From Thermoplasmata archaeon (lineage in GTDB: Archaea > Thermoplasmatota > Thermoplasmata > RBG-16-68-12 > EA-27): DNA of 58,296 nt. The notes under the pieces were generated by a model. The model saw only the letters and a program-made list of their open reading frames with translations. It made no database searches and was not told the origin of the DNA. The position numbers were made by a program, and so were the translations under genes. The DNA lies in assembly GCA_035283165.1 (NCBI GenBank), contig DATEUK010000007.1, positions 1-58,296 on the forward strand. Direction: 5' to 3'. Position 1 is the stretch's first letter, and the number at the start of each line of letters is the position of its first letter. Below, one piece after another: positions 13,615 through 53,409 of this stretch.

Positions 13615-16600
13615 TCACGCAGCGTAGTACGCCTCGTCGTACGGCTCGGGCGCGAGTCCCTTGCGCTCCCGGATTCCCCGGACGACGTCTCCCTGGAGGT
13701 CCGACGGAACCGGCTGGAAACCGGCGTTCTCCGTGGACCAGAGGACGCGGCCCTGCGTCGCGCCGCGGATGGCGGTCGCGAACCCGAACATCGCCGCCAC
13801 AGGGACCTTCGCGGAGATCTTCGTGACCTCGCCCTCCTGCTGAATGTCCTCGATGGTGCCGCGCCGACTCTGCACGTCGCCGATCGCGGCGCCCATCACG
13901 TCCTGCGGAAGGTCGAGGAACAGCTTCTGTTTCGGTTCCATGAGGATCCGCTCGCCCTGGACCATCGCCCCATAGATCGCGCTCCGAACGGCCGGAATCA
14001 CTTGCGCAGGGCCGCGGTGCACGCTGTCCTCGTGCAGTTTCGCGTCGACGAGGCGGATCTTCATCGCCATGCACTTCTCCTGTGCGAGCGGGCCCTTCGT
14101 CATCGCCTCCGTGTAGGCTTCCTTCACGAGCTCCATCGTCTCGTTCAGGTACTGGATCCCCTTCGTCGCGTCGATCAGCATGTTCGTGTCCTTGATCCAC
14201 ACGACGTTCTTAGCCTCGTCCTTGTCCATCCCGAGATCCTGCAGCTGTCTCGCGAGCGCCTTCGCGTCCTTGATGCGCTGGCCGCTGGGGATCGCCCCCT
14301 CGTGGATCGCCGCCACGATCGCGTCGGCGAGCGGTTCCGCCTCGACGTAGAAGCGATTGTGTCTGTTCGGGGACTTCCCCTCGAACGGGCCGCCCGCCCC
14401 GCGGACGCGCTCCCGGTACACGACGATCGGCGCGCTCGCGGTGATGGGGACCTTGTAGTCGTTCACGATCCGGTACTGCGTGATCTCCAGGTGGAGCTCG
14501 CCCATCCCCGACATAAGGTGCTCGCCCGTCTCCTGGTTGATGTCCACCTCGATGCTCGGGTCCGCCTTCGCGATCTTCCGGAGCACCTCGACGAGCTTGG
14601 GCAGATCCGCGGTGGCCTTCGCCTCGATCGCGACGGTGACGACCGGCTCCGAGTAGTGCACGATGGGCTCGAACGCCTGCATCGACCGATCGTCGCTGAC
14701 CGTGGACCCCGCGATCGCGTCCTTCAGGCCGATGACGGCGACCACGTTCCCCGCGTCGATCTCTTCGACCGGGACCCTCTCCGGCCCCACGATCATCGCG
14801 ACGGTCTGAACGCGCTGTGGATGCGGCATCCCGGACACCCAGAGCTCTTGGCCGCGTCGGATCCTCCCGCTGAACAGGCGGCCCGCGGCGACCTCCCCCG
14901 CCTGGGGGTCGACGATGATCTTCGTCACCATGTAGGCGACGGGGGCATCCTCCTTCACCTTCGTCATCGCCTTCCCGACGGGGCTCTCGGGGTCTCCCTT
15001 CCAGATCACGGGGATCCGCATCGGCTGGGCGACGAGCGGGTTCGGCAGGTGGTGGATGACCATGTCGAGGACGACCTGGTGGAGCGGCGCCCGCTTGCTG
15101 AGGTCGTCCTGCTTCTCCTCCGACAGGTAGCGGTAGATCTCCTTGAACGTGATCCCCGTCTTCTTCATGTACGGCACGGAGATCGCCCACTTGTTCCGCG
15201 CGCTGCCGAACGCGACGTTCCCTGCCTCGACGTTCAGCGCCCACGGTCCCTTCAGCTCGTCGGGGAGGATCTTCCTGATGCGGACGTTGACGTCCGTGAT
15301 GATCTTCACGAACCGCTGCTGCATGCGGTCCGCGTCCAGCTTCAGCTCGTTGATGAGGCGGTCCACCTTGTTGATGAATAAGACGGGCTTCACGCGCTCC
15401 TTCAGCGCCTGCCGGATGACGGTCTCCGTCTGCGGCATGACGCCCTCGACCGCGTCCACGAGGATGATCACGCCGTCGATCGCACGCATCGCGCGGGTGA
15501 CGTCACCGCCGAAGTCCACGTGGCCGGGCGTGTCGATCAGGTTGACGAGGTACGCCTTCCCGTCGAACTGATGGACCATCGAGGCGATCGCAGCATTGAT
15601 CGTGATGCCTCGCGCCTGCTCCTGCTCGTCGAAGTCCATGAACAGCTGCGTGCCGGCCAGTTCCTCGCTCATCATCCCTGCGCCGGCGATTAGCGAATCG
15701 GATAGCGTCGTGTTGTGAACAAAGAAGCCCTCAGCCACGAAATTTCGCGGGCCAGGAACAGAGAAGTCGTAGACCCATTCTTCCTCGACTCGATGAACGC
15801 TGTGAACTTCGACGAAAGCGACATCTTGATTGAGGACTGGCTCGAGTTCCTCGAAATCGCTCCCGGCCATGAGGATTAGGGATGCTGAGGATGGCTTCTG
15901 TTCCAGACGTGCGTAGGTTCTCGTCTTCCACGTGTTCGTTTGCAGTCTGTTCCAGTTGACGGGGACGAGATCCACCACATAGGAGGGACCGGCTCGTGCT
16001 TCCAGGCCCGCCTGTCGGCTCGATTTCTCAGAATCGTGCAGCCGCGGGAATCGAGAGAGGTTGGTTCGGCCGGAGACGTACAATGTGGAGTGCGACACGC
16101 CTTGATCGAGGATAGCTCGCACCCCCAAGCGCAGGAGCAGGAGCTGGAGGTCGCCTAGGAAGGTGGGGGACGCACTAGTCGCGGTCACCGCGCGCCGGCC
16201 TGATTCGACAGAGCCGTCTGCGTCGAAGTATCCCTGAACAAAGGCCCTGACCGTTGATATCGGGGCCGTGAATAGGAGATCGGGTAGCCGCATCGTTCGC
16301 GCCTTCGCGAGAAGAGGGTAGCCGAGGACGACATGAAGAAACATCAAGAGAGTCTTCGATCGACTCTCGACGCGCGGGACCCGCGGGGGATGGCGGGCGA
16401 TCGCGGGCTTTGGGACGAATCCCTGAAGCGACGCCAACACCTCGTGAATGAGATCCTCGTCCGCCCCGTGAAGGAATCCATTCCCGTCACCGTCTCCGTA
16501 GAGAAGGCCAAGGTATCGGAAGAATCGCTCCATAGAGGCCCGCTTCGGCAAGTACATCGGGGACGCTGCTTTCTTCGTACCGACCCTGTAGGTCACGCGC

Positions 16601-17268
16601 CAGATCTGGCGGTAGACGGCATCGCGAGAGAATCCTGACTTGGCGGCGGCCTCGAAGAGCGACGCGCCATTGACGATGCCCCCTAGCCCTAGAAAGGTTT
16701 CTCCTTCGGCCGTCAGTTCGAAGTGGAAGCGTGGATCTGCGGCAAGGCGGGACACAACGGTCGCTTCAAGATCCGACCATGGCTCGTCGTCTCGCGACGG
16801 GAGCCGCCTGGGAACCGCCAGCATGTCCCCCTTCCTTAACTGGTTCGCTTCTCGGAACTCCAGCTCATGCCCTTTGGCGGCGACGAACCTATGCTCCCGC
16901 GTCGTGCGGAGTCTTCGCCCATCTCGAGTCTCGATCTCCAAGAGAGGCTCCGTTGCTCGGAGCCGCCACACATGGGTAATCTCCGCAAATTGTGTCTCCC
17001 CCGATGAGATGTTGATGGAGCGAGTCCACAGAGACCCATTTGGGACCTGGCGCACGTCCGCACCTTGGCGGTTGGGGACTGGTTCCAGTGACGAGTAGCG
17101 CGCCCACAGATCTCCGGCCGCGATCCACAAGCCATCGACCCATATTCTCGCATCACCGGAGACACATTTCCCGTGATCGATGTGGGCCGCGGTCCCGATG
17201 TTTCGAATCTGCTCCTTCGTGTGGATAAGGTCCTGCGCCTTCCGGATGTTGTCCTCCTTTCGTCCCAT
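13615..17268 (-). CDS. fusA: Translation elongation factor EF-2 (aEF-2) interrupted by a 485-aa intein
   Basis: The 1217-aa ORF contains 732 aa of extein: AHIDHGK|TTLSDSL, DTPGHVDF, NKVD and the diphthamide region HEDSVHRGPAQ. An AGGAG SD lies 9 nt upstream of the ATG. Confidence 0.97.
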   Translation of the reverse strand: MGRKEDNIRKAQDLIHTKEQIRNIGTAAHIDHGKCVSGDARIWVDGLWIAAGDLWARYSSLEPVPNRQGADVRQVPNGSLWTRSINISSGETQFAEITHVWRLRATEPLLEIETRDGRRLRTTREHRFVAAKGHELEFREANQLRKGDMLAVPRRLPSRDDEPWSDLEATVVSRLAADPRFHFELTAEGETFLGLGGIVNGASLFEAAAKSGFSRDAVYRQIWRVTYRVGTKKAASPMYLPKRASMERFFRYLGLLYGDGDGNGFLHGADEDLIHEVLASLQGFVPKPAIARHPPRVPRVESRSKTLLMFLHVVLGYPLLAKARTMRLPDLLFTAPISTVRAFVQGYFDADGSVESGRRAVTATSASPTFLGDLQLLLLRLGVRAILDQGVSHSTLYVSGRTNLSRFPRLHDSEKSSRQAGLEARAGPSYVVDLVPVNWNRLQTNTWKTRTYARLEQKPSSASLILMAGSDFEELEPVLNQDVAFVEVHSVHRVEEEWVYDFSVPGPRNFVAEGFFVHNTTLSDSLIAGAGMMSEELAGTQLFMDFDEQEQARGITINAAIASMVHQFDGKAYLVNLIDTPGHVDFGGDVTRAMRAIDGVIILVDAVEGVMPQTETVIRQALKERVKPVLFINKVDRLINELKLDADRMQQRFVKIITDVNVRIRKILPDELKGPWALNVEAGNVAFGSARNKWAISVPYMKKTGITFKEIYRYLSEEKQDDLSKRAPLHQVVLDMVIHHLPNPLVAQPMRIPVIWKGDPESPVGKAMTKVKEDAPVAYMVTKIIVDPQAGEVAAGRLFSGRIRRGQELWVSGMPHPQRVQTVAMIVGPERVPVEEIDAGNVVAVIGLKDAIAGSTVSDDRSMQAFEPIVHYSEPVVTVAIEAKATADLPKLVEVLRKIAKADPSIEVDINQETGEHLMSGMGELHLEITQYRIVNDYKVPITASAPIVVYRERVRGAGGPFEGKSPNRHNRFYVEAEPLADAIVAAIHEGAIPSGQRIKDAKALARQLQDLGMDKDEAKNVVWIKDTNMLIDATKGIQYLNETMELVKEAYTEAMTKGPLAQEKCMAMKIRLVDAKLHEDSVHRGPAQVIPAVRSAIYGAMVQGERILMEPKQKLFLDLPQDVMGAAIGDVQSRRGTIEDIQQEGEVTKISAKVPVAAMFGFATAIRGATQGRVLWSTENAGFQPVPSDLQGDVVRGIRERKGLAPEPYDEAYYAA
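15712..17166 (-). mobile_element. Full-size intein with a LAGLIDADG homing-endonuclease domain in the EF-2 P-loop
   Basis: It starts CVSGDARIWVDG and ends GFFVHN, followed by +1 Thr. LAGLIDADG motifs are LGLLYGDGDG and VQGYFDADGSV. Excision restores AHIDHGKTTLSD. G+C is locally lower: ~55% versus ~67% in hand-counted 60-nt samples. Confidence 0.9.
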
Positions 17269-17330
17269 GCGCGGTCACGCTCCTACTTTGGAGCCCGTAC
17301 TTAACGATTCCCTCGGGGGGACGCACCAAA

Positions 17331-36274: not shown

Positions 36275-38491
36275 CTATCGATGCGAAAGCACGCTGTAGT
36301 ATCGTTCGTCCTTCACCGTCTTCTCGAGCGAGCCGAAGATCGGGAGCTTGTAGTCGCATGACTTGCACCGGTTGTCCTTCGTCAGGTTCCATCCGGTGAT
36401 GTCGAACCCGTACCGGCGGATCGCGATCGTCCCGCACCCCGGGCAATACGTGTGCTCGAGCGGGTGACCGGGCACGTTTCCGATGTACACGTACCGGAGC
36501 CCGACCTCCTTCGCGACCGCGCAGTGCTTCTCGAGCGTCTCGACGGGCGTCCACGGGAACTCCATCATCTTGTAATCCGGGTGGAACCGCAGGAAGTGGA
36601 TCGGCGTGTCCGGTCCCAGCTCGTCGTACACGAACTTGGACAACGTCCGGGCGGCGTCGAGGTTGTCGCCGACCTGGGGCACGATGAGGTCCGTGATCTC
36701 CGTGTGGATCTTCGTCCGGTCCCGGATGTCCTTCAGGGTCTGGAAGATCGGGTCCGCGTTCGGGATCGAGATGTACTTCCGCACGAACTGCGTTTCGCCA
36801 GAACCCTTGAAGTCGACCGTGATGCAGTCGAGGAACGGCTTCATCTGCTCGACGACCTCCGGCGTGTCGTACCCGTTCGAGACGAAGATGTTGATGAGCC
36901 CGGCCTTCCGCGCGAGGACGCCGATGTCCCGCGCGAACTCGATGAAGATCGTCGGCTGGTTGTACGTGTACGCGAGGCCCTGACAGCCTTGGTCGAGGGT
37001 CATGCGGACGATGTCCTCCGGCTGCGCATCGATGCCCTCGATCTTCCGTCGCTGGGAAATGTCGTAGTTCTGGCAGTTCGCAACCGCCAGGAAATTGGCG
37101 GTGTAGCTGTGGTCGTCATCGACCTCGATGTTGTAGACCGGGCCCACGTAAGTCTTCGTCCGAATGTCCCTGATGGGCGCGAAGATGTGGTCCTCCGTGG
37201 CATACCGCTCCATCGCGTGGGAAACGACTTGCGTTTGCAGACCTCCGCTAGAGCCGAGAGCAATCGCCTCCTCCAGCGAACCCCAGTGTGCGATCCATCC
37301 AGGCATGGCCGTTGCTTCGCTCGGAGTCCTGGGCCGGGGAATCACAAGGCAGTCGCCGGCGCTAAGGGATTCTGCCCGAACTTCGGTGACGGCCGCTCCC
37401 TTGATTGACGCGTACACGTTGTGATCGGGGGTGCACTCCAGCGCGCCCATCCCCGCCAGCCGAATTTCCAAGGCAGGGCCCGAGTAGAAGTGCTCGAACG
37501 CCTGGACGATTCGCCGCCATCGCCTCTTGTGGGTGAAGGCCATTCGCCCGTCGGCGCCGCGAACTTCCGGATTCAGGGAGGGCGGCGAAGAAGCGAAGAT
37601 TCGCTCGATTCTTTCCTGGCCCCGATCCGTCAGCACCTTCGTGCCCGGGAGGAAACAATATCGACAGTTGTGCACGACGACATCCGCGGCGACGTAGTTG
37701 TGAAACGGAACGCATTCGAAGCTATAGACCCGTTCTCGGGAACCTTCGGGCGAAACGCGTAGGACGCTCGACCATCCGAAGGTCGGCAAATTGAGTTCTT
37801 GGTACAAGAGATCCAGGAACCTGGAAGTCTCGACCGGGTGAGCGCTCGGACCGTGCGGGGGCAGCAGGATGCGTCCAGCATGCGCGGGTCTTGAAGCGAG
37901 ACCCTCGTGGACTAGGACGCGATCGCCAGCACTGAGCCCTGAAATGGTCTTCCAACCTTCGGCCGTCAACACCGGGTGTTCGGCCGTCCCGAAGAGCGGC
38001 TCGCGAAGACGTTCGATCGAAACGCGGTATACGGGGGCCTTTCGAGCGCCCGCCAGGGTCACGACGTCGGGGATCGCGCGGCCCCGGGTGCCCGTTGACC
38101 AAAGGGCATCACCCGGCGCGATCTCCTCGACAGGCCTCGTTGTCCCGTCCATCATGAGTATTTGTGTCCCCGCGGGATGGCACAGCCAATTGCACCCGGT
38201 CGTCGCAATGCTGAAGATCTTCGACCCCGGCCGGTAGTGCGTCACCGGCTTCTTCTCGATCGGGTCGACGTGACCGGTGATCACCTTCCCGTACGTGTAC
38301 AGCCACAACTTCCCTTGATGGACGCCGCGGATTCCGCAGAGGCCGACCTGCCCCTCGCCGATCTTGCAGTACCGTGCGCACGCGGTGCACACGATCCGGC
38401 CGGACTCCGTGGGCTTCCACAGCTCCGCGACCTTGCCCATCGCGTGGCCCGGCGCCTCGCGGACGTCGAGCGGTTCCCTCTGGGGCAGCAC
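36275..38491 (-). CDS. Radical-SAM enzyme (AmmeMemoRadiSam / PflA-like family) interrupted by two mini-inteins
   Basis: The N-terminal Cys-rich region is [20 protein letters not shown]. The spliced motif is [16 protein letters not shown]. The C-terminal part reads GYDTPEV...[10 protein letters not shown]...CPGCG...CKSCDY. The start is ambiguous: GTG 38491 (23 nt after the TATA box), ATG 38440 or ATG 38560. Confidence 0.88.
37076..37657 (-). mobile_element. Mini-intein 2 (194 aa) inserted before the third Cys of CX3CX2C
   Basis: [13 protein letters not shown]...[11 protein letters not shown] (TxxH)...[21 protein letters not shown], followed by +1 Cys. The penultimate residue is Ala rather than His. 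Confidence 0.85.
37667..38182 (-). mobile_element. Mini-intein 1 (172 aa) inserted before the second Cys of CX3CX2C
   Basis: [13 protein letters not shown]...[10 protein letters not shown] (TxxH)...[21 protein letters not shown], followed by +1 Cys. No endonuclease domain. Confidence 0.88.
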
Positions 38492-38513
38492 GGGTTCACG
38501 AGCCGCTCCGGCG

Positions 38514-38522
38514 CTATAAAGG
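38514..38522. promoter_or_regulatory. TATA element in the divergent region between the radical-SAM gene and the 428-aa gene
   Basis: CTATAAAGG on plus, CCTTTATAG on minus. On the minus side GTG 38491 follows after 23 nt. Confidence 0.35.
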
Positions 38523-38586
38523 AAACGCCCTGACTCTCGCGGACGCACGCGAAGGTTCATTCGAAGCGTGCGGCTTCCGCCGCAGG

Positions 38587-40987: not shown

Positions 40988-43900
40988 CTACAACTCGGGC
41001 TCGTCCTCGCGCGGCTTCGGTTCCACCGCAACCCCATCTCTCGGCTCGGCCCCTATCCCCGCGTCCTCGATCTCTTCCCTCGTGCCGACTTCCACTTCAT
41101 CCTCGGGCTTCTTCCGTCGTCGCCAGGCCGCGAGAACGAACAGGCCAAAGAGCACCAGGATTGCGAGGATCACGACGATGAGGAGAACGGTCTCGACTCG
41201 CGTCAGAGGGTTGGCGGGCTCGACGACGATGGTTACGGTGTCCGATGCAGACGCGTCCGTGCCGTCGCTCACGATCAGGGAGAACACGTACGTTCCGGCG
41301 GCGGTCGCGGCGAACGCGGGGGTCGCGCTGTTCGCGTTCGTGAGGGTCACGCTCGGCGGCCCGCTGATCCCCGTCCACGTGTACGTGAGTGGGTCGCCGT
41401 CGGGATCGGAGCTGAGCGTTCCATCCAGGGTCACGAGCGCGCCCACGATGACGGTCCGCTGGTCCGGCCCGGCGTTCGCGGTCGGAGGTCGGTTCATTGC
41501 GCCCACGGCGACCGTGTCCTGCGAAAGCCCGCCGTTGTCGTCCATGACGTCGACCCGAAACGTGTAGACACCGCTCGTTGGCGGCGTGAACGTGGGCGTC
41601 GCGGTGTTCGGGCCCGTCAGCGAGACCGCCAGTCCGGAGACCTGAAACCACGCGAAGCTCAGCGTGTCTGGGTCCGGGTCCGAGGAGAGGCTGGCGTCGA
41701 GCGTGACAAGGCTCCTCTTGAGCACGTCTTGATCCTGTCCAGCGTTCGCGATCGGCGGGCGGTTCCCGACCCCGATCGTGAGAGTGTCCGTGTCGAATTG
41801 GTCGATCGCGTCCCAGACCGTCAGGGTGACCGTGAACGTGGCCCGCGTGGCGTACAGGTGCGTGGCCGTCTCCGTGGTCGCGGTGTCGCCGTCCCCGAAG
41901 TCCCACCGCCACGCGACGATCCCCTGGTCGTCCGCCGACGCGGAGCCGTCGAAAGAGAAGGTCGTTGCGAGCGTGCCCGTCTGGTCGGGCCCTGCGTCGG
42001 CATCTGGCGGGAGGTCGACCGTGATCGTCACGGAGAGCGTCGCGTCGTCCGTGCTCCCTTCGTCGTCCGTCACCGTGAGCGTCGCCACGTACGTGCCGGC
42101 GGCGGCGTACGCGTGCGCGGCGGTCGTCGGCGGCCCGCCCCCGTTCGCGGAGTTCCCGTCCCCGAAGGCCAGCGTCCACGAGGCGATCGTGCCGTCGGGA
42201 TCCGTGGACACGGAACCGTCGAACGTGATCGTCTGTCCGGTCAACGCGCTCAGCCGGTCCGCGGTGAGGTCCGCGACCGGGGCCATGTTCCAGACGTCCA
42301 CCGCCACGTCGTCCGTGTCCGTCCCGCCGTCGAGGTCGTCCACCGCGAGGCGGAGCATGTAGAGGCCAGCGATCGTCGGGGTGAACGTCGCCGTCGCGGC
42401 GTTCGGATTCGCAAGGATTATCACAATCGGCCCGCCGATCTGCGTCCAAGAGAAGGACAGCGGGTCGCCGTCGGGATCAGCGGACCCGGTGCCGTCCAGC
42501 GTGACGACGACCCCCTTCAGGAAGCCCGCCTGGTCCGGGCCCGCGTTCGCGATCGGCGGTCGGTTCACCACGTTGATCGTAAGCGCGTCCGTGTCGTTCT
42601 GATTGAAGGCGTCCCAGACGGTCAGGGTGACCACGAAAATGCTTCTCGTAGCATAGGTGTGCGCGGCTACCTGCGTGGTCGCCGTGCTCCCGTCTCCGAA
42701 ATCCCACAGCCAGCGGACGACCCCGTGGTCGTCCGTCGAGGCGGACGCGTCGAAGCTGAACAGTGTGGCCAGGGTCCCCGTCGTCCCCGGGGTCACCGCA
42801 GCCACCGCGGTGGGCGGGTCGTCTACGAAGACCGTCACGAGAACGGTCGCGGTGTCGGAGGCCCCCTCGTCGTCCCAGACCGTGACGTTGACCGCGTAGG
42901 TGCCCGCGGCGGCCCACGCGTGCGGGACGAGGGAGGTCGTGACGTTTCCCGAGCCGCTGCCGTCCCCGAAGGTGAAGTTGTACTGCACGATCGTGCCGTC
43001 GCCGTCCACCGATCCGCGCGCGTCGACATCGGCGAGGGCGCCGGTCTGCAAGGGGTTCGGGGTCACGGTCAGGTTCCCCGTCGGCGCGGCGTTCGCGACG
43101 CTGACGGACACGGAGTCGCTCACGTTCGTGCCCTCGGGGTCGTAGACAAAGAGGTCGAAGGTGTAGATTCCGGCGCCCGCAGTCGTGAAATTCGTGATCG
43201 CCGCAAACGGCGTCGTAAGGGTCACGCGACTTGGGCCGCCGGTCTGCCACCAGAAGTAGGTGATCGGCTCAGCGTCGGGGTCCGAGCTGTTCGAGCCGTT
43301 GAGCGTCACGTTGGAGAACTTCGCCGCGTTCTGATCGGGGCCCGCATCTGCGACCGGGGGTCGGTTCGCGACCGTGACGTTCGTGCCGTCCGTCTCGTTC
43401 GTCCCGAGCGGGTCCGTGACTCTCAGGGAGAATATATAGACACCCGAGGCGAACGCCCCGTTCGAGGCCGTGAACGAGGCGATGGCGGTGTCGGGACCGT
43501 TCAGGGTCACGGGCTGGGGGCCCGCGGTCTGCGTCCAATTGTACGCGAGCAGGTCCCCGTCCGGGTCCACGCTCGCCGAGCCGTCGAGGGCCACGAGGGC
43601 GTTCTCGAACGTCATCTGGTCGGGCCCGGCGTCCGCAATCGGGCCCTGGTTCAGGATGACAACGTCGATCCAGTCGGAGTCGGATTCGGTCCGGTTATCT
43701 GTGACCGTGAGGTTGAACGTGTACGTCCCGACCATCGTCGGCACGACGGAGGCGACGCTCGTGTCCGCGTCGGGGATCGGGAGGAGATTCGGGCCGGCCA
43801 CCTGCGTCCAGTTGAAGGTGATCGGGTCGCCATCCGGGTCGAAGCTCGCGCTCCCGTCCAGCGTGACCGTCGCGTTGCGCACAGACATCTGGTCCGGCCC

Positions 43901-46165
43901 CGCGTTCGCCACGGGCGGGCCGCTGAGGGCGTCGATCGATATCTTCGCCACGAAGACGTCGCCGGTGCCGCCGGAACTCGCGTTGAAAGCACCGGGGGTC
44001 ACCGGGAAGTCGATGGAATCCGTGGCTCCGGTCACGTAGGCGCTCCCGCCTGAATAAGCGTTCGAGAAGGCAACGTCGCCGCCTCCACCGCCGCCGAGGT
44101 AGGTCGAATAGAGGAGGGAGCCGCCCGTGGGGTCCAGCTTCGCCACGAAGGCGTCGCACACTCCGTCGAATCCCATGTCGTAGGCACCAGGGGTCACCGG
44201 GAAGTCGGTGGAGAACGTGCCTCCGGTCACGTAGGCAGCGCCGCTTGAGACAGCGATCGAAAAGCCAACGTCCCAGTCTACGCCGCCGAGGTAGGTCGAA
44301 TAGAGGAGGGAGCCGCCCGTGGGGTCCAGCTTCGCCACGAAGGCGTCCCCGCCAGTTCCTCCAGTCGTGTTGAAAGCACCGGAAGTCACCGGGAAGTCGA
44401 TGGAGAGCGTTTCTCCGGTCACGTAGGCAGCGCCGCTTGAGACAGCGATCGAAAAGCCCCTGTCCCAGTCTTCGCCGCCGAGGTAGGTCGAATAGAGGAG
44501 GGAGCCGCCCGTGGGGTCCAGCTTCGCCACGAAGGCGTCCCCAAGGGTACCTCCAGTCGTGTTGAAAGCACCGGGGGTCACCGGGAAGTCGGTCGAGTCC
44601 GTGAATCCGGTCACGTAGGCAGCGCCGCTTGAAACAGCAATCGAAAAGGCCCTGTCCCAGTTTACGCCGCCGAGGTAGGTCGAATGGAGGAGGGAGCCGC
44701 CCGTGAGGTCCAGCTTGGCCACGAAGGCGTCTCCGGCGATCCCTCCGGTCGTGTTGAAAGCACCGGGGGTCACCGGGAAGTCGGATGAATACGTTTCTCC
44801 GGTCACGTAGGCGTGGTCGGTTGAGACAGCGATCGAAAAGCCAACGTCCCAGTCTACGCCGCCGAGGTAGGTCGAATAGAGGAGGGAGCCGCCCGTGGGG
44901 TCCAGCTTGGCCACGAAGGCGTCTCCGGCGATCCCTCCGGTCGTGTTGAAAGCACCGGGGGTCACCGGGAAGTCGGTCGAGTCTGTGAATCCGGTCACGT
45001 ATGCGCTACCGTTGGAAACCGCGATCGAACGGCCAATGTCATAGCCCGCACCGCCGAGGTAGGTCGCGTATAGAAGGGAGCTGCCCGCGGGGCTAAGCTT
45101 GGCGACAAAGGCATCCCCAAGGGAACCTCCGGTCGTGTTGAAAGCGCCGGGAGTCACCGGGAAGTCGGTCGAGTCTGTGAATCCGGTCACGTATGCGCTA
45201 CCGTTGGAAACCGCGATCGAACGGCCAAAGTCGTAGCCTGCTCCCCCGAGGAGGGCCGCGTAAACGAGCGGGTCGATGAGAAGGGGACGGGACTCGTCCA
45301 TGCCTCGGCAGTCGAATCCGCTGGTCAGCCGAGAACGGAGAGCGAAAGCGCAGGGAACGAGATTCTCCCCCTGGTAGGCCACCGGAGCGGTGTCCCGGAC
45401 AGGCCCTAGGAGCGTGTGGACCCGCAGATCGCCGGTCTCGCCCACCTCAAGGCCGTCGGCCCCCTCATATGACAGAGCGATTACGGTCGGGTCCGCGCCC
45501 GGGTCGAGGCGGAACTCGTACTTCAGCCCCTCCGAGCCGAACCGGTACACGAGGTCGATACCCTCGTAGAGGCCCTCGTACACGACTTCGGAGTAGCTCC
45601 GCACGTGGGTCCGCCACGCCGCGGGATCGTTCCCGAGGAAGAAGTGGCTTCGGTGCGGCAATTCACCGCGGCCTTTGGGGACGATGGGGTTCGCCCCTTC
45701 GAAAGTAAGGCGGATGAGGACGCCTCGCGCGGTGGAGAGAGGTTCAGCGTCGGTCAGGCCCGCCCGTTCCGTTGAAAGAAGGTCCACTCGCGCCGGGGGG
45801 GAGCGCTCTTGCAACTTGAAGAGCACGCCGGAGGGGATGAACCCGACATCCATGCTGCCCGAGGACGTGTAGAACCGCACGTCCCGATTCCCTACCTGGC
45901 CAGCGTTTTCCGAGAATCCCGCGCCGAGGAGGGTCCCCAAGGCATCGGAGCCCGGAATCGGAATCGTGGGAGGGGTGAGGTTGTCGGAGGTGGCGGTGGA
46001 AGTCGCGCCCGGAGGCGGCGCGAGCAGGAGCAGAGCCCCTCCGACCGCGGCTACCAGCAGATTTCGGCTCGTCGCCCCCAGGCATCGCCGGCCCCTCACG
46101 TCCAATCCTCCTCGACTCGGGCCATCGAATCTCGTTCGCTTAACCTTTGTGACACCGCATATCAC
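40988..46165 (-). CDS. Giant surface protein (1725 aa): signal peptide, 7 SBBP beta-propeller repeats, ~10 PKD/Ig-like domains, TM anchor and an acidic tail
   Basis: The SBBP unit is AYVTGFTDSTDFPVTPGAFNTTGG..DAFVAKLDPTGGSLLYSTYLGG. The PKD linkers (N)RPP(V/I/T)A(N/D)AGPDQ recur. C-terminal TM span VLLIVVILAILVLFGLFVLAAW. Confidence 0.85.
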   Translation of the reverse strand: MICGVTKVKRTRFDGPSRGGLDVRGRRCLGATSRNLLVAAVGGALLLLAPPPGATSTATSDNLTPPTIPIPGSDALGTLLGAGFSENAGQVGNRDVRFYTSSGSMDVGFIPSGVLFKLQERSPPARVDLLSTERAGLTDAEPLSTARGVLIRLTFEGANPIVPKGRGELPHRSHFFLGNDPAAWRTHVRSYSEVVYEGLYEGIDLVYRFGSEGLKYEFRLDPGADPTVIALSYEGADGLEVGETGDLRVHTLLGPVRDTAPVAYQGENLVPCAFALRSRLTSGFDCRGMDESRPLLIDPLVYAALLGGAGYDFGRSIAVSNGSAYVTGFTDSTDFPVTPGAFNTTGGSLGDAFVAKLSPAGSSLLYATYLGGAGYDIGRSIAVSNGSAYVTGFTDSTDFPVTPGAFNTTGGIAGDAFVAKLDPTGGSLLYSTYLGGVDWDVGFSIAVSTDHAYVTGETYSSDFPVTPGAFNTTGGIAGDAFVAKLDLTGGSLLHSTYLGGVNWDRAFSIAVSSGAAYVTGFTDSTDFPVTPGAFNTTGGTLGDAFVAKLDPTGGSLLYSTYLGGEDWDRGFSIAVSSGAAYVTGETLSIDFPVTSGAFNTTGGTGGDAFVAKLDPTGGSLLYSTYLGGVDWDVGFSIAVSSGAAYVTGGTFSTDFPVTPGAYDMGFDGVCDAFVAKLDPTGGSLLYSTYLGGGGGGDVAFSNAYSGGSAYVTGATDSIDFPVTPGAFNASSGGTGDVFVAKISIDALSGPPVANAGPDQMSVRNATVTLDGSASFDPDGDPITFNWTQVAGPNLLPIPDADTSVASVVPTMVGTYTFNLTVTDNRTESDSDWIDVVILNQGPIADAGPDQMTFENALVALDGSASVDPDGDLLAYNWTQTAGPQPVTLNGPDTAIASFTASNGAFASGVYIFSLRVTDPLGTNETDGTNVTVANRPPVADAGPDQNAAKFSNVTLNGSNSSDPDAEPITYFWWQTGGPSRVTLTTPFAAITNFTTAGAGIYTFDLFVYDPEGTNVSDSVSVSVANAAPTGNLTVTPNPLQTGALADVDARGSVDGDGTIVQYNFTFGDGSGSGNVTTSLVPHAWAAAGTYAVNVTVWDDEGASDTATVLVTVFVDDPPTAVAAVTPGTTGTLATLFSFDASASTDDHGVVRWLWDFGDGSTATTQVAAHTYATRSIFVVTLTVWDAFNQNDTDALTINVVNRPPIANAGPDQAGFLKGVVVTLDGTGSADPDGDPLSFSWTQIGGPIVIILANPNAATATFTPTIAGLYMLRLAVDDLDGGTDTDDVAVDVWNMAPVADLTADRLSALTGQTITFDGSVSTDPDGTIASWTLAFGDGNSANGGGPPTTAAHAYAAAGTYVATLTVTDDEGSTDDATLSVTITVDLPPDADAGPDQTGTLATTFSFDGSASADDQGIVAWRWDFGDGDTATTETATHLYATRATFTVTLTVWDAIDQFDTDTLTIGVGNRPPIANAGQDQDVLKRSLVTLDASLSSDPDPDTLSFAWFQVSGLAVSLTGPNTATPTFTPPTSGVYTFRVDVMDDNGGLSQDTVAVGAMNRPPTANAGPDQRTVIVGALVTLDGTLSSDPDGDPLTYTWTGISGPPSVTLTNANSATPAFAATAAGTYVFSLIVSDGTDASASDTVTIVVEPANPLTRVETVLLIVVILAILVLFGLFVLAAWRRRKKPEDEVEVGTREEIEDAGIGAEPRDGVAVEPKPREDEPEL
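43930..45270 (-). repeat. Seven tandem ~189-192-nt coding repeats (the SBBP blades) with long identical nucleotide runs
   Basis: For example, 44961-45036 and 45153-45228 are a 76-nt perfect repeat at 192-nt spacing. Confidence 0.85.
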
Positions 46166-46211
46166 GGGTGAGGAAGTGCAGGTGCGCCACGAGGCAGGGT
46201 CCCGGGAGAGC

Positions 46212-46219
46212 CTTAATAC
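46212..46219 (+). promoter_or_regulatory. TATA-like box for the UPF0200 / UPF0201 / AcnX operon
   Basis: CTTAATAC lies 24-31 nt upstream of ATG 46243. Confidence 0.4.
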
Positions 46220-46242
46220 GGCGGTCCCTTTGCACCGCCAAA

Positions 46243-46776
46243 ATGCCCGTAATCTGCGTCACCGGCATGCCGGGCTGCGGGAAGGAGGAGCTGCTCAAGG
46301 TCGCGGCGGAGCGCGGGCTGGCGGTCGTCCGCATGGGCGACATCGTCCGCGAGGAGGCGCACCGGCGCGGCCTGAAGTTCAGCGACGAGAGCGTCGGGGG
46401 CATGGCCCACGAGGAGCGCGTGAAGCACGGCTTCGGAGTCTGGGCGGAGCGGACGATCCCGCGCATACGGGACGAAGTGACCGTGATCGACGGCATCCGC
46501 GGTCGCGAGGAACTCGACGTGTTCCGACGCGCCTTCGGGGAGCGCCTCATCGTCGTCGCGATCCACGCCTCCCCCGCGATCCGGCACGATCGGATCCGGA
46601 AACGAGCGCGGGGCGATGACGCCGTGTCCTGGGAGGAGTTCCTCCGCCGTGACGACCGCGAGCTCGGGTGGGGACTCGGCGAGGTGATCGCGACGGCGGA
46701 CCGCATGGTTGTGAACGAAGGGGGCATCGAGGAGATGCAGCAACGGTGCCGCGACCTCCTCGACGCAGTCGCGTGA
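46243..46776 (+). CDS. UPF0200-type P-loop nucleotide kinase (dephospho-CoA-kinase-like fold)
   Basis: MPVICVTGMPGCGKEE (Walker A), IDGIRGREE and RDDRELGWG. Confidence 0.75.
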   Translation: MPVICVTGMPGCGKEELLKVAAERGLAVVRMGDIVREEAHRRGLKFSDESVGGMAHEERVKHGFGVWAERTIPRIRDEVTVIDGIRGREELDVFRRAFGERLIVVAIHASPAIRHDRIRKRARGDDAVSWEEFLRRDDRELGWGLGEVIATADRMVVNEGGIEEMQQRCRDLLDAVA

Positions 46777-48364: not shown

Positions 48365-49143
48365 GGCTCGTCGGACGAACCGTCGTGGCGGGTCTGGCGG
48401 AGGGCCCCGTCCTCGCCTCGGACCGACCGCTCTCTCTCCTTGGCGGCGTGGACAACGAGACGGGCGAGGTCCGCGACCCGGAGAGCCCGCTGCGTGGAGA
48501 GCGGCTCGGAGGCCGCGTCCTCGTCGTACCGCACGGGAAGGGGAGCACGGTCGGCTCCTACGTTCTGTACGCGCTCCGGAAGCGGAATGCAGCCCCACGC
48601 GCGATCCTCGTCTCCAAGGCGGACACGATCCTTGCGGTCGGTGCCGTCCTTGCGGAGGTCCCGATGGTGGACCGGATTCCCGTGGATGTCTTGCGTACGG
48701 GGGACCGGGTCGTCGTGGATGCGGCCGCCGCCATCGTCGACGCCCCCGACCTCGTGGAACGGGACGTGGTGACGTCCTTCCTGGAGCGGGAGGGTCGCAT
48801 CCTGGTCGTCCGGCGCAGCGAACAGGTCGGCTCCTTCCGGGGGAAGTGGTCCGGCGTCTCCGGGTTCCTCGAGGGCGTGGACGCGGAGGCCCACGCCCGT
48901 CGCGAGATCGAGGAGGAGACGGGGCTCACGGACGTACGACTCCTGGCGGCGGGCCCCGTGGTCCGGAGCCGAGGACCGGACAACACCGTGTACGCGATTC
49001 GACCGCATCGGTTCGCCTCCCGCGCGGGAGGCGTCCGGCTCGATTGGGAAAACGTCGAATACCGCTGGGTGGTGCCGGCGGAGCTCGCGGGCCTGGACGC
49101 GGTGCCGAAGCTCCGGGCCGCGTACGAGGCGACCCTAGGCTGA
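48361..49143 (+). CDS. Fusion of the aconitase X swivel (small) subunit, DUF126, with a C-terminal Nudix hydrolase domain
   Basis: N-terminal half: GLAEGPVLASDRPLSLLGGVDNETGEV...VVPHGKGSTVGSYVLYAL...AAPRAILV. C-terminal half has the Nudix box GFLEGVDAEAHARREIEEETGL. ATGA overlap with the upstream gene. Confidence 0.8.
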   Translation: MRLVGRTVVAGLAEGPVLASDRPLSLLGGVDNETGEVRDPESPLRGERLGGRVLVVPHGKGSTVGSYVLYALRKRNAAPRAILVSKADTILAVGAVLAEVPMVDRIPVDVLRTGDRVVVDAAAAIVDAPDLVERDVVTSFLEREGRILVVRRSEQVGSFRGKWSGVSGFLEGVDAEAHARREIEEETGLTDVRLLAAGPVVRSRGPDNTVYAIRPHRFASRAGGVRLDWENVEYRWVVPAELAGLDAVPKLRAAYEATLG

Positions 49144-52100
49144 CGGGACCGGCACGGTCACGACGCCGTCGACTTCCTTCTCGAGCAGGTTCAACTGATG
49201 CGCGTCGAGCGTCGCGGGGTTCACGGACAGCACCATGGTCGCCCCGTTGATCGCGACCTGGTCCCGCAACGCCTGCACGAGCCGGAGGACGGTCAGGAAG
49301 TTGTTGTTCGTGATGAGGTATTCGATCCCGTCGAGGAGGACGAGCCCCGCCTCTTTCACGATGAACTGCTCGAGCGCGAGGGACAGCTTCTCCAGGTCCT
49401 TCGGCCGCACGCTGTCGTCCTTGCCCACGTTGCTGAGCCACAGGATCGGGACGTCCGCCGGGATCCCAAACTTCTCGCGGACCTTGGCGGGGTACACGCG
49501 GGTGACGCAGAAGCCACGCCGTCCCTTCCGGAGCGCGTCCAGGAAGAGAGCGTACGACTGCTGGGGCTTCTCCTCCTTCACGAGATATGTGGACGACGCG
49601 CCCGGCTCCATCGCGGGTGCGGGGAGCGCCTCCTGGATCGGTGCTTGGACGCGGACCGCGACCGGAGTGGGCGCCATCGTGGGGGCCTCAGCGACGGGTT
49701 CCATGGCCCGTGGGGCCGGGGCGGCGGCGACCGGAACGGCCACGGCCGGCGTTTCGGGCGCAGGCTCCGGCTCGGGCTTCGCCGGCTTCTCCGCGCCGAA
49801 CCCGCAGTGGGGGCAGGCGTACGTCCCCTTGGCGATCGGCTTCCCGCACGCCGGGCACGGCAGGGTCCCCTCGGGGAGCTCCCCGCACCGCCAGCAGCGT
49901 GACTCCTCGGGCCTCCCCGGTGCGCCACACACCGCGCAGGCGGGGACCTTCGCGGCGGGTTCCCGCCCGAGGAATTCCCAGATGCGCCGGGCGTCCCCCT
50001 CCTCGATCCCCTGGATGTGGAGGATCTCGTCGCGGCTCGCGGCGCGGACGGCTGCGAGGGTCTTGTATCCCGCATCGAACAGCGCGATCGCCTTCTTCTC
50101 CGTGATGCCGGGGATCTCCGTGAAGGCGTCCAACGCCTCCCGCATGTGGAGGGGGGTGATCCCGACCAGCAGCGACTCCCCCTCCACATTCGGCCACTCC
50201 ACGATGTACTCCTCGTCGACGTCGCCCGTTCCGATCGTGAGCGTGCGGCTCCGGACTTCCCGCGCGATGTACGACCGCCAGGGCTCCAGGGGGGCGACCA
50301 GCCCTTCGGGGACCCGGATGATGGCCCGGATGTAGTCCTCCACGTCGAGATCGATGTCCTTCCGCATCTGCTGCACGCGCCGCACGACCTCCCGTGCCAT
50401 GCCCTCCGCGCGGAGTTCGGGCGTGATCCGGAGGTCGATGAACAGCTCCCCGTACGGCGTCTCCGCACGCACGATTCCCTCCGGCAGGCGGTGCTCGACC
50501 CGCACCATGTTCGGCAGGATCTTGATGATCTGTCCCTCGATCCCCATCTTGTACTCCCCGTGCTCCTGCAGCTCCCGTTGGACCTCCGAGGCCGGACGCA
50601 TCTCGAGGATCGTCGCGATCTTCGACCACCACGCCTTGTACGCCTTCCCGATTGCCTGCGGGTCCGGCGACAGCGCGAGTTCCATCTCCGCGTACGGGGA
50701 GTCCTCGGCGAGGATCTGCACTTCCTTCACGTTCGCCATGTCCCGGAAGATGTGCAGGAGCTGTCGGATGGCGTCCGCCGCGTCCGCTGGCGCCCCCTGG
50801 ATCGTCACGGACCGCACCGGCCACCGGAGCTTCAGGTTCTCCTTCTGGCGCACCTTCGCCACGACGTCCACGAGATCCCGGATCGTGTTCATCGACCTCT
50901 CGAGGCCCGCGTTCAGGAAGTCCTCTCGGGATCGGGGCCAGTCCGCCATGTGCACGGAGAGCATGCGGCCGTCGAGGTCCTGGTAGATCTCCTCCGCGAT
51001 GTGCGGACAGAACGGGGCGAGGAGCCTGGCGGTCGTGACCAACGCCTCGTACAGCACCCTGTACGCCGCCATCTTGCCCCGGTCCTCGCCCTCCGCCCAC
51101 GTCCGGTCCCGAACGATCTTCACGTACCATCGCGAGAGGTCCTCGACGACGAACTCCTCGAGCGCGCGCGTCGCCCGGTGCAGCTCGTACGCTTCGAGCA
51201 GGGCCGTCATCGTCTCCTTGATCCGCTCCACCCGGGACAGCAGCCACCGGTCCTCCGGCGTGAGGTGTTTCACGACCTCGTCGAGCCGGTGCGCGTCCGG
51301 GTCGAATCGGTCCATCGCCATATACGTCGTCGCGAACCGGAGGACGTTGTACAGGATCGTCAGCGTCCGGCCCGCGTTCTTCACGTCCTCCCAGGAGAAC
51401 GTGACGTCCTCCCACGGCGCGTTCGCCCGCAGCAGGTACAGACGGAGGGCGTCGACCCCGTGTTTGGCGATGACCTCGAACGGTTCGATGTAGTTTCCCA
51501 GGGACTTGTGCATCTGCCTCCCGTCCGGGCCGTTCACCCACCCGTGCATGAGGACGGACTCGAACGGGGATCGGTCGAACGCAGCCACACCCAAGGTGAG
51601 CTGGGCGTTGAACCACCCGCGTGTCTGGTCGGGCCCTTCGACGATCCAGTCGACCGGCCACCACCGCTTGAACAGGTCCTTCGTCCGCGGAAGGTTGAGC
51701 TGCGCCCACGACGCGACCCCGGAGTCGAACCAGACGTCGAGGACGTCGGGCACGCGGCGTTCCGTCCCGCCGCACTTCGGGCACCGGAACGTGACCGCGT
51801 CGATCCACGGCCGGTGCAGGTCCATGCCCTCGCGGTAGTTCTGCCCCGCCCGCAACTCCTCCGTGGAACCGACGACGCGCAGGTCCCCGCACTTCTCGCA
51901 CACCCAAATCGGGAGGGGCGTGCCCCAGTACCGTTGCCGGGAGATTGTCCAGTCACGCAGGTTCGTCGTCCACTCCATCTGCCGGGCGGAACCCGCCCAG
52001 TCCGGGACCCATCGGACTCGCCGGATCTCTTCGATCATCTTCGCCCGTAGGGGGTCCACGCGGAGGAACCACTGCTCCGTGACCCGGAAGATGACCGGCG

Positions 52101-53310
52101 TGTGGCACCGCCAGCAGTGGCCGTACCGGTGGACGACCTGCCCCTGGTGGAACAGGGCTCCGGCCGCCTTCAGGTCCTCGATGACCGATGCGCTCGCCTC
52201 CCGCACGTGGCGGCCCGCGTACGAACCCGCCTCCGCGGTGTACACGCCCCGCTCATCGACGGGGGAGAACGGGGGGAGTCCCTGGGCCTGTCCGAGCTCG
52301 AAGTCCTCGGGCCCGTGTCCCGGCGCCGTGTGCACGAGGCCCGTATGCTCGTTCGTCACGGTGGGCGAGGCGAGGACCTTGTGCGCGTTCGGTGCAATGG
52401 CCTGAGCATGGTACGGCACCTTGTCGGCGAGCGGGTGCTCGTAGGCCCATCCCACCATCTCCGATCCCACGAGGAGGTCCCCGATTCGACCCAGCACGTC
52501 CGCCTCGTCCAAGATGCGCGCGGCGGTCTCCTCCAGGACCCACACCGCCCCGTCGCCTAGCTCCACCTTCGCGTACTTGAACTCGGGGTGCACCGCCACG
52601 GCGAGGTTCGCGGGGAGTGTCCACGGGGTCGTCGTCCAGATCAGGAGGGACTCTCCCGGGCGGTCCTTCAAGGGGAACTTCACGTAGATCGAGGGGTCCG
52701 TCTCGTCGGAGTACTCGACCTCCGCCTCCGCGAGCGCGGTCTCGCACCGCGTACACCACTGGAGGGAGCGGACGTTCTTCGACAGGAGGCCTTTCTCGTG
52801 AGCGAGCTTGAGGGTCCACCATTCCGTCTCGATGAACGGGTTCACGATTGTAATGTACGGGGCCTCCCAGTCCATCCACACGCCGAGCTGCTGGAACTGC
52901 TCCGTCATCTTCCCGAGGAGGTCGAGCGAGAACTCGCGGCACGTGGTGACGAACTTCTCGATTCCGAGCTCCTCGATCTCGCGCTTGTTCGTGATCCCGA
53001 GGGTCTTCTCGACCTGCACCTCGATCGGCAGGCCGTGCATGTCATACCCGGGTTGATCGCGGACGTTGTACCCCTGCATCCGCCGCCAACGGACGATCGC
53101 GTCCTTGATCGTCTTGTTCAGGGTCGCACCCAGGTGGATCGATCCCGTCGTGTACGGGGGCCCGTCCACGAAGTAGAAATCCCTCCCCTTCTCGCGGAGC
53201 GTCCGCGTCTTCTCGTACGCCTTCGTCCTCCGCCAGAACTCCTGGACCCGCTTTTCCTGCTCGAGCGGAGCGTGGTCCTTCCTCGCCTGCTTTATCATCG
53301 CACTCCCCAC
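49135..53310 (-). CDS. ileS: Isoleucyl-tRNA synthetase fused in frame to a ~335-aa HhH / double Zn-ribbon / Pro-Ala linker / DUF835 extension
   Basis: PYTTGSIHLGA (HIGH), QMHKSLGN (KMSKS) and a complete IleRS up to about residue 1053. The frame then continues without a stop to residue 1391. Confidence 0.93.
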   Translation of the reverse strand: MGSAMIKQARKDHAPLEQEKRVQEFWRRTKAYEKTRTLREKGRDFYFVDGPPYTTGSIHLGATLNKTIKDAIVRWRRMQGYNVRDQPGYDMHGLPIEVQVEKTLGITNKREIEELGIEKFVTTCREFSLDLLGKMTEQFQQLGVWMDWEAPYITIVNPFIETEWWTLKLAHEKGLLSKNVRSLQWCTRCETALAEAEVEYSDETDPSIYVKFPLKDRPGESLLIWTTTPWTLPANLAVAVHPEFKYAKVELGDGAVWVLEETAARILDEADVLGRIGDLLVGSEMVGWAYEHPLADKVPYHAQAIAPNAHKVLASPTVTNEHTGLVHTAPGHGPEDFELGQAQGLPPFSPVDERGVYTAEAGSYAGRHVREASASVIEDLKAAGALFHQGQVVHRYGHCWRCHTPVIFRVTEQWFLRVDPLRAKMIEEIRRVRWVPDWAGSARQMEWTTNLRDWTISRQRYWGTPLPIWVCEKCGDLRVVGSTEELRAGQNYREGMDLHRPWIDAVTFRCPKCGGTERRVPDVLDVWFDSGVASWAQLNLPRTKDLFKRWWPVDWIVEGPDQTRGWFNAQLTLGVAAFDRSPFESVLMHGWVNGPDGRQMHKSLGNYIEPFEVIAKHGVDALRLYLLRANAPWEDVTFSWEDVKNAGRTLTILYNVLRFATTYMAMDRFDPDAHRLDEVVKHLTPEDRWLLSRVERIKETMTALLEAYELHRATRALEEFVVEDLSRWYVKIVRDRTWAEGEDRGKMAAYRVLYEALVTTARLLAPFCPHIAEEIYQDLDGRMLSVHMADWPRSREDFLNAGLERSMNTIRDLVDVVAKVRQKENLKLRWPVRSVTIQGAPADAADAIRQLLHIFRDMANVKEVQILAEDSPYAEMELALSPDPQAIGKAYKAWWSKIATILEMRPASEVQRELQEHGEYKMGIEGQIIKILPNMVRVEHRLPEGIVRAETPYGELFIDLRITPELRAEGMAREVVRRVQQMRKDIDLDVEDYIRAIIRVPEGLVAPLEPWRSYIAREVRSRTLTIGTGDVDEEYIVEWPNVEGESLLVGITPLHMREALDAFTEIPGITEKKAIALFDAGYKTLAAVRAASRDEILHIQGIEEGDARRIWEFLGREPAAKVPACAVCGAPGRPEESRCWRCGELPEGTLPCPACGKPIAKGTYACPHCGFGAEKPAKPEPEPAPETPAVAVPVAAAPAPRAMEPVAEAPTMAPTPVAVRVQAPIQEALPAPAMEPGASSTYLVKEEKPQQSYALFLDALRKGRRGFCVTRVYPAKVREKFGIPADVPILWLSNVGKDDSVRPKDLEKLSLALEQFIVKEAGLVLLDGIEYLITNNNFLTVLRLVQALRDQVAINGATMVLSVNPATLDAHQLNLLEKEVDGVVTVPVPSA

Positions 53311-53409
53311 CGGGGACCGGGCTTCTTTCTTCGCCCGTGGTGCCGTCCCATCGAAAGGCCTGGCGTATTAAAAGGTGCCGTCCTCATTGTCGGCCGGGAA
53401 AGCGGGAAG

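Follow-up and report, generated by a model that had tools for sequence, protein, structure and literature searches.

We analyzed a 58,296-nucleotide stretch of DNA from a Thermoplasmata archaeon (GenBank assembly GCA_035283165.1, contig DATEUK010000007.1, positions 1 to 58,296; hereafter, the window) and, in particular, a minus-strand gene encoding a radical S-adenosylmethionine (SAM) enzyme that is interrupted by two inteins, intein-a and intein-b. This gene (Table 1) is a single uninterrupted open reading frame (ORF) of 761 codons when counted from its first ATG. Two alternative starts exist, the methionine of MGKVAELW at 38440 (721 amino acids) and a Val codon at 38491 (738 amino acids), and one of these is likely the true start of the precursor. 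An initial annotation of this DNA had given the product 738 amino acids, apparently counting from the Val codon, and the coordinates it had assigned to each element were reproduced exactly by translation and mapping. As it had proposed, the inserts lie directly before the second and third cysteines of the iron-sulfur (Fe-S) cluster motif CX3CX2C (Cys2 and Cys3), leaving an extein of only Cys-Arg-Tyr (CRY) between them. The cysteine of this tripeptide serves intein-a as its +1 nucleophile and at the same time occupies position -3 relative to intein-b, and motif Cys3, the first residue of CQNYDISQ, is encoded at 37073..37075.

The interrupted protein is an AmmeMemoRadiSam-type radical-SAM enzyme, the host family named in the initial annotation. 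Deletion of both inserts in silico yields GCNWLCRYCQNYD and a protein of 355 amino acids (from MGKVAELW), that is, an intact motif within a normal-sized enzyme. This spliced product scores 322.3 bits against the NCBIfam model TIGR04337 (AmmeMemoRadiSam system radical SAM enzyme; curated cutoff = 220 bits) over model positions 2-330 of 349, and the unspliced precursor scores 297 bits; the cluster motif of this type of enzyme, CNWLCRYC, is restored only once both inserts have been removed. No second copy of the radical-SAM enzyme was found in the window. Likewise, no AMMECR1- or Memo-family gene was present among the 20 large window ORFs searched with Pfam, which are a part of all its ORFs, or among the called neighbours, although such partners need not adjoin the enzyme gene.

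Table 1. Elements of the intein-containing radical-SAM precursor gene in the window.
Element	Coordinates	Strand	Evidence
Precursor gene, AmmeMemoRadiSam-type radical-SAM enzyme with two inteins	36275..38560	-	ORF listing, TIGR04337
N-extein, 86 amino acids from MGKVAELW, holds Cys1 of CX3CX2C	38183..38440	-	97% identity to P0300 (an intein-free homologue), residues 18-104
Intein-a, 172 amino acids, before motif Cys2	37667..38182	-	PF14890, NF038136, HINT fold model
Inter-intein extein Cys-Arg-Tyr (TGT CGA TAT), Cys = motif Cys2	37658..37666	-	Translation mapping
Intein-b, 194 amino acids, before motif Cys3	37076..37657	-	PF14890, TIGR01445, TIGR01443
C-extein, 266 amino acids, starts CQNYDISQ, remaining radical-SAM barrel	36278..37075	-	89% identity to residues 107-372 of P0300; Pfam Radical_SAM match

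Both inserts are inteins at the boundaries given in Table 1, a result well outside what chance would produce. The intein profile PF14890 (Intein_splicing) matches the whole precursor with E=4.7e-17, and Pfam and NCBIfam intein profiles match each insert, in agreement with the HINT hallmarks first noticed in the sequence (Cys1, TAEH or TPDH in block B, a terminal Asn and a Cys at +1). Intein-a, which runs from CHPAGTQ to VVVHN, begins with Cys1-His-Pro, carries TAEH in block B and ends in His-Asn before Cys+1. Searched alone, it matches PF14890 (E=8.9e-8, 32.5 bits) and the intein portion of NF038136 (Rv2578c family radical SAM protein; E=6.8e-10), and by sequence the solved structures closest to it are those of the Ssp DnaB and Mtu RecA inteins. 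Cys1, the terminal Asn and the His-Asn terminus are present in 80/80 of its relatives, TxxH is kept, and the Cys-His-Pro start is found in 77/80.

Intein-b, which runs from CFLPGTK to LAVAN, begins with Cys1-Phe-Leu-Pro-Gly-Thr and carries CTPDH in block B, a penultimate Ala and a Cys at +1. On its own it matches PF14890 with E=1.8e-9 (38 bits, above the cutoff), clears the NCBIfam thresholds for intein N- and C-termini (TIGR01445, 27.7 bits; TIGR01443, 20.3 bits), and matches part of NF045703 (tetraether lipid synthase Tes; E=3e-4); the Mja KlbA and PI-PkoII inteins are its closest solved structures by sequence. All of its 84 relatives have Cys1 and the terminal Asn, and TxxH is kept. The absence of the penultimate His, already pointed out in the initial annotation, is a fixed feature of this group, since all 84 relatives end in Ala-Asn (66), Ser-Asn (16) or Gly-Asn (2), which makes the missing His a trait of the lineage and not a sign of decay. 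A penultimate His is common but not obligatory, and natural inteins without it exist; its absence therefore does not exclude intein-b from intein membership. Each intein also carries an extra, non-catalytic cysteine, which is invariant in intein-b (in CTPDH of block B, 37433..37435) and about 90% conserved in intein-a (in SFEC of block F, 37712..37714). These cysteines are possible internal disulfide partners for Cys1.

The predicted fold agrees with the profile matches. An AlphaFold model of the a-CRY-b segment (mean predicted local distance difference test score, pLDDT, 78.5) contains two beta-rich domains, and the 50 PDB matches listed by Foldseek (all E <= 7e-5) are all inteins, bacterial intein-like (BIL) domains or intein-type homing endonucleases, with TM-scores of up to 0.86 on the target. 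The DnaB, RecA and KlbA inteins are among these listed fold matches, with 11-24% identity in the fold-search alignments.

Alignment to intein-free homologues established both insertion points. The homologue P0300, the best match, is 91% identical to the spliced protein and shows no gap across GCNWLCRYCQNYD, so that CRYC is contiguous, and with the spliced protein as the query we found many further intein-free homologues of 352-381 amino acids that read GCNWLCRYCQN. Empty alleles are also present in the genome bins L023 and L024. The abundance of intein-free homologues rules out that the inserts are ordinary conserved domains. An assembly artefact was ruled out as well, since an identical 761-amino acid protein is encoded on contigs of two separate ENA assemblies and 48 further clusters share the layout.

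Neither insert of the window gene matched an endonuclease family in Pfam, in agreement with their description as mini-inteins. Relatives at both sites fall into two size classes. At site a (before Cys2) these are mini-inteins of 170-175 amino acids and 353-amino acid forms with a DUF559/MTES_1575 domain, the full-length forms having about 180 additional residues where the window copy has a short linker modeled with low confidence. At site b (before Cys3) they are mini-inteins of 171-198 amino acids and forms of 403-405 amino acids with a LAGLIDADG domain (LAGLIDADG_3). When window intein-b is aligned to a full-length relative, the residues at its two ends align (116 at the start, 41-56 at the end) and the endonuclease region is missing; the LAGLIDADG domain of the relatives of about 404 amino acids falls in the gap between intein-b residues 116 and 153, where the window copy again has a short linker of low model confidence, and accounts for about 210 additional residues. 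The site-a endonuclease (P0076-P0078, P0093-P0118) is restriction-endonuclease-like (DUF559/MTES_1575) and Vsr-like, not LAGLIDADG, and Vsr-like domains are a less common endonuclease type among inteins. In some alleles (P0094, P0099) the DUF559-type endonuclease at site a occurs alongside a LAGLIDADG intein-b.

Searching with the precursor gave 366 proteins; the best 120 clusters at 90% identity were taken, and 115 of these could be classified: 49 contain both inteins, 31 only intein-a and 35 only intein-b. The spacer tripeptide is CRY in 107/115 of these homologues. These clusters come from uncultured Thermoplasmata. Among the classified loci of GTDB species representatives, which are uncultured Thermoplasmata of soil and sediment, and with the window left out, 10 alleles are double, 2 are empty, and a-only and b-only alleles number 6 each, in addition to one truncated locus that is probably double; the number of doubles among these genome bins is close to that expected under independence, in a locus search that was biased by its use of intein-derived patterns. 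The exteins are 87% identical in the median, and all four occupancy states are interspersed among them. Inteins in the double alleles of relatives are 46-61% identical to the window copies. The rarity implied in the initial annotation did not hold, given that 49/115 clusters are double, that doubles also occur in three proteins of two other radical-SAM families, and that the Cys3 site is widely occupied by single inteins; in public metagenomes the arrangement is frequent.

A profile of the a-CRY-b segment was searched against 1.84 billion representative proteins, the flanks of the matches were inspected and the hosts were named by NCBIfam. More than 30 other 50%-identity clusters contain b-like inteins directly before Cys3 of CX3CX2C, in hosts that include other AmmeMemoRadiSam clades, B12-binding radical-SAM enzymes (HpnJ/BchE-like), one member of the PA0069/Rv2578c family, and the protein P0204, which matched no named family. 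Both sites are occupied in the B12-type radical-SAM protein P0177 (GCPYK/.../CTY/.../CYNS, with slashes at the boundaries) and in the CXXX-repeat radical-SAM/SPASM maturases P0202 and P0233, which have inteins before Cys2 and Cys3 and an additional one further downstream, in a Cys-rich motif of the C-terminal part that is apparently the SPASM region. Outside the radical-SAM enzymes, two inteins lie six residues from each other within CxxCxxCxxxCP of the NuoI-like ferredoxin P0238. Inteins that use an Fe-S ligand as the +1 nucleophile thus look like a recurrent theme. Further long proteins (P0159, P0164, P0165, P0197, P0206, P0217, P0223 and others) consist of HINT domains in tandem, joined by linkers of 1-5 residues (...VHNKGG/CF...) and with a non-nucleophilic +1 residue. 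These look like arrays of bacterial intein-like domains, and their HINT units stand even closer together than the window pair.

Intein-a and intein-b are unrelated lineages of independent origin. A profile-profile alignment gives about 20% identity between them, which is generic HINT-level similarity, and this value, the different nearest solved structures and the different endonuclease families rule out the tandem duplication of a single intein. The inteins are also far more diverged than the exteins (mean distance 0.46-0.49 versus 0.11). The drop in total G+C content described in the initial annotation (57% versus 67%) disappeared on full counting, the values being 62.8% and 62.5% for the inteins and 62.4% for the extein, which rules out total G+C content as a sign of foreign origin; only the G+C content at third codon positions (GC3) differs, at 0.70 and 0.76 in the inteins and 0.92 in the extein. 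The window contains a further intein, of 485 amino acids and LAGLIDADG type (approximately 15712..17166), in the GTPase P-loop of the EF-2 gene (13618..17274, minus strand; AAHIDHGK/C...FVHN/TTLSDS). Its GC3 is 0.69 against 0.92 in its own extein, an offset like that of the radical-SAM inteins.

The reading that we favour, with a probability of about 0.75, is that two selfish class-1 inteins invaded this gene independently at adjacent homing sites, 9 bp apart, and that both were reduced to mini-inteins. Sites a and b both fall within the DNA encoding CX3CX2C, and they were presumably chosen because they combine a highly conserved DNA target, a ready Cys nucleophile at +1 and an essential residue, whose position tolerates no inexact removal of the insert. 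This reading is supported by the finding of alleles in all four occupancy states and of endonuclease-bearing relatives at both sites; the interspersed states, the greater divergence of the inteins and their GC3 offset speak for mobility. Since both window copies have lost their homing endonucleases, they would persist only by vertical inheritance, with splicing still required. Moreover, intein-b lineages are common to b-only and double alleles, and this, together with the unchanged junction residues, suggests that intein-b needs no neighbour-specific adaptation.

Each intein is predicted to follow the same route, in which an N-S acyl shift at its own Cys1 would be followed by trans-thioesterification to the downstream Cys+1, Asn cyclisation and an S-N shift. 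The order of excision would be immaterial to the product, because the key junction residues (Leu-1 and Cys+1 for intein-a; Tyr-1 and Cys+1 for intein-b) do not depend on the other intein. Only after both excisions would GCNWLCRYCQNYD be rebuilt and the enzyme become able to bind its [4Fe-4S]/SAM cluster. That the inteins excise themselves autocatalytically and join the exteins is probable, considering the purifying selection on the inteins and their long retention in a well-conserved enzyme; that the precursor does splice, in which order it does so, and that the inteins have no regulatory role, we infer. The initial annotation had held that the precursor cannot bind its cluster. It should be noted that the motif is indeed native only after both excisions, but the Cys1 of each intein stands in for the cysteine it displaces. 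In a b-only precursor, or in an intermediate from which intein-a has been spliced, a linear CNWLCRYC is present whose last cysteine is the catalytic Cys1 of intein-b, and metal or cluster binding at this motif could in principle compete with splicing.

Several observations weigh against the favoured reading. In its purely selfish form it leaves two patterns unexplained: the intein-a copies of double alleles fall in clades apart from the a-only mini-inteins and, in counts that ignore phylogeny, the presence of intein-a goes with enrichment of the site-b endonuclease (odds ratio 7.6) and that of intein-b with depletion of the site-a endonuclease (odds ratio 0.11). The CRYC arrangement and the extra conserved cysteines of both inteins leave room for redox control. 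Intein-a alone scores slightly below the Pfam gathering cutoff (32.5 versus 35.8 bits), and the signal of purifying selection on both inteins (nonsynonymous pN of 0.25-0.43 below synonymous pS of 0.58-0.78), and likewise on the extein, is usable only in its direction, since synonymous divergence is near saturation and any dN/dS ratio is rough. The patterns between the neighbours hint, without being proof, at incomplete independence, with close neighbours interfering and a mini-intein that may lean on its neighbour's endonuclease. A tentative alternative is a composite mobile unit, in which an endonuclease-less intein-a hitch-hikes on the LAGLIDADG endonuclease of intein-b: the 9-bp spacer is too short to act as a homology arm, so the repair of a site-b break from a double donor would copy both inteins. 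Such a unit would fit the odds ratios and the clade structure given above, as well as the predominance among double alleles of mini-a with an endonuclease-bearing b (27 clusters, the commonest state, versus 3 with both endonucleases). It would also fit the correlation between intein-a and intein-b distances (Mantel r=0.24, p=0.006) and the usage of the spacer Arg codon (37661..37663), which is AGG or AGA in 6/6 a-only alleles (L018, L019, L021, L022, L025, L027, compared with L003-L017) and CGN in 10/11 double and 6/6 b-only alleles and in the CRY empty allele. This split (Fisher p=4e-5, phylogeny ignored) may reflect co-conversion by the site-a endonuclease, the codon lying in its tract, or else protection from cutting by the site-b endonuclease. 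Whether a mini-intein hitch-hikes on the endonuclease of its neighbour was left as an open question for the inteins of haloarchaeal MCM (PMC10643990). However, the distance correlation is weak, and vertical descent equally predicts shallow co-clustering; one intein-a clade pairs with different intein-b lineages; the counts are of 90%-identity clusters uncorrected for phylogeny; neighbouring inteins of Haloferax MCM co-homed inefficiently (PMC10643990); and the window copy carries no endonuclease whatever. We consider quite improbable the stronger form of this idea, a co-adapted composite in which intein-a spreads only by obligatory co-conversion with the endonuclease of intein-b, C-R-Y-C forms one redox or metal lock on both splicing reactions and the design has arisen repeatedly. 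If it were true, redox state or Fe-S supply would gate the maturation of an oxygen-labile Fe-S enzyme, and the same device would be repeated at the radical-SAM CX3CX2C, at SPASM motifs and at the ferredoxin CxxCxxCxxxCP.

The room left for redox control raises the possibility of an adaptive conditional-splicing switch, in which the cysteine of CRY and Cys1 of intein-b, arranged as CxxC, would form a disulfide or a metal site when oxidised or metal-bound. A single bond between them would block step 2 of intein-a (trans-thioesterification) and step 1 of intein-b (the acyl shift) together, and the oxygen-labile enzyme would mature only under reducing conditions. The C-R-Y-C geometry, together with C-N-W-L-C upstream of intein-a, would permit this, and PMC3922620 and PMC10663303, which summarise Callahan et al. 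2011, describe a native disulfide linking Cys-3 with Cys1 and controlling splicing of the Pyrococcus abyssi MoaA intein, a redox-trap intein. The extra cysteines in CTPDH and SFEC, invariant and near-invariant, and the retention of the double arrangement over deep divergence and its recurrence in other Fe-S proteins are also in line with a switch. Nevertheless, we regard it as unlikely: a CxxC arises automatically, with no need for selection, whenever a Cys1 intein enters before the third cysteine of CX3CX2C, intein-free alleles are common among equally close relatives, which marks the arrangement as dispensable, and the endonuclease-bearing relatives, sporadic distribution and foreign GC3 suggest parasitism. 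As for a decaying pseudogene with inserts that do not splice, or an assembly chimera, the loss of both endonucleases, the missing penultimate His of intein-b and the Pfam score of intein-a could be taken as signs of it. Against this stand the open frame across 761 codons, catalytic residues that are all intact and conserved in 80 (intein-a) and 84 (intein-b) relatives, purifying selection on both inteins and the extein, and a penultimate Ala, Ser or Gly that is universal in the b lineage, including its endonuclease-bearing and presumably active members. The identical protein in two assemblies and the recurrence of the layout in at least 11 other species-level genome bins argue in turn against a chimera, and we find this explanation hardly credible.

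MoaA belongs to the radical-SAM superfamily. Like the P. abyssi MoaA intein, intein-b starts with Cys1, interrupts an oxygen-sensitive enzyme and is preceded by an N-extein cysteine at -3 (CRY/C), a shared geometry that we base on sequence only, and we infer that the MoaA insertion site is equivalent to site b. The window gene differs in its host family and in that the -3 cysteine doubles as the +1 nucleophile of a second intein. The NF038136 (Rv2578c) and NF045703 (Tes) families are likewise radical-SAM enzymes with inteins, curated as exception families in NCBIfam; their exteins, however, belong to another family, the window protein scores far below their cutoffs (38 versus 700 and 19 versus 1700 bits), and both models describe single inteins whereas the window gene has two. 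No model in the NCBIfam release searched covers an intein-containing AmmeMemoRadiSam precursor. The window inteins have the HINT fold, with its blocks A, B, F and G, in common with two solved mini-inteins, Ssp DnaB and Mtu RecA (PDB 1MI8, 2IN0), and with the inteins Mja KlbA and PI-PkoII (PDB 2JMZ, 2CW7). They differ from these solved inteins in the unusual Cys-His-Pro start of intein-a and the penultimate Ala/Ser/Gly of intein-b.

The closest parallels for the paired sites are the haloarchaeal MCM-a/MCM-d inteins (PMC10643990) and the DnaB a/c sites, where several homing sites crowd into a single conserved motif, both sites are frequently filled, a mini-intein often makes up one of the pair and the homing endonucleases interact. 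Only two residues separate sites a and c of DnaB, and PMC4760082 reports co-occupancy for b and a only; in contrast, window-type sites, three residues apart, are occupied jointly in dozens of lineages. Unlike in the MCM and DnaB systems, moreover, the motif consists of Fe-S ligands and is not that of an ATPase, and the endonucleases at the two sites are of different families. Already known are inteins and mini-inteins as such, genes with more than one intein, an intein inside a radical-SAM enzyme and clustered insertion sites. Our full-text literature searches returned no prior description of a frequent intein pair three residues apart with a shared Fe-S/+1/-3 cysteine, nor of the radical-SAM CX3CX2C as a hotspot where inteins use two sites in several families of enzymes. 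Joint occupancy three residues apart in an Fe-S motif, by inteins with two endonuclease families and with recurrence across Fe-S proteins, is apparently undescribed.

Three other genes of the window are unusual in their own right. Two encode very large PKD-repeat-rich proteins, of 1756 amino acids (40991..46258, minus strand) and 1186 amino acids (6653..10210, plus strand); the latter ends in winged-helix helix-turn-helix domains (HVO_0163-like, ArsR/MarR-type), so that repeats of an extracellular type are oddly combined with DNA-binding domains. The third (49138..53367, minus strand) encodes a class-I aminoacyl-tRNA synthetase (Ile/Leu/Val/Met-type) with a C-terminal fusion to helix-hairpin-helix (HhH), zinc-ribbon and DUF835 domains, in a stop-to-stop ORF of 1410 amino acids.

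Taken together, the arrangement is real, less exceptional than first thought, and a good natural system for the study of intein-intein interactions. It is of practical value as a source of two orthogonal compact inteins that are naturally in tandem and tolerate a 3-residue linker. The Thermoplasmata allele series, which comprises empty, a-only, b-only and double alleles in mini and endonuclease-bearing versions, makes direct tests possible and addresses mini-intein hitch-hiking, the mutual exclusion of adjacent endonucleases, the minimum length of an extein between two inteins, and whether one disulfide may gate two splicing reactions.

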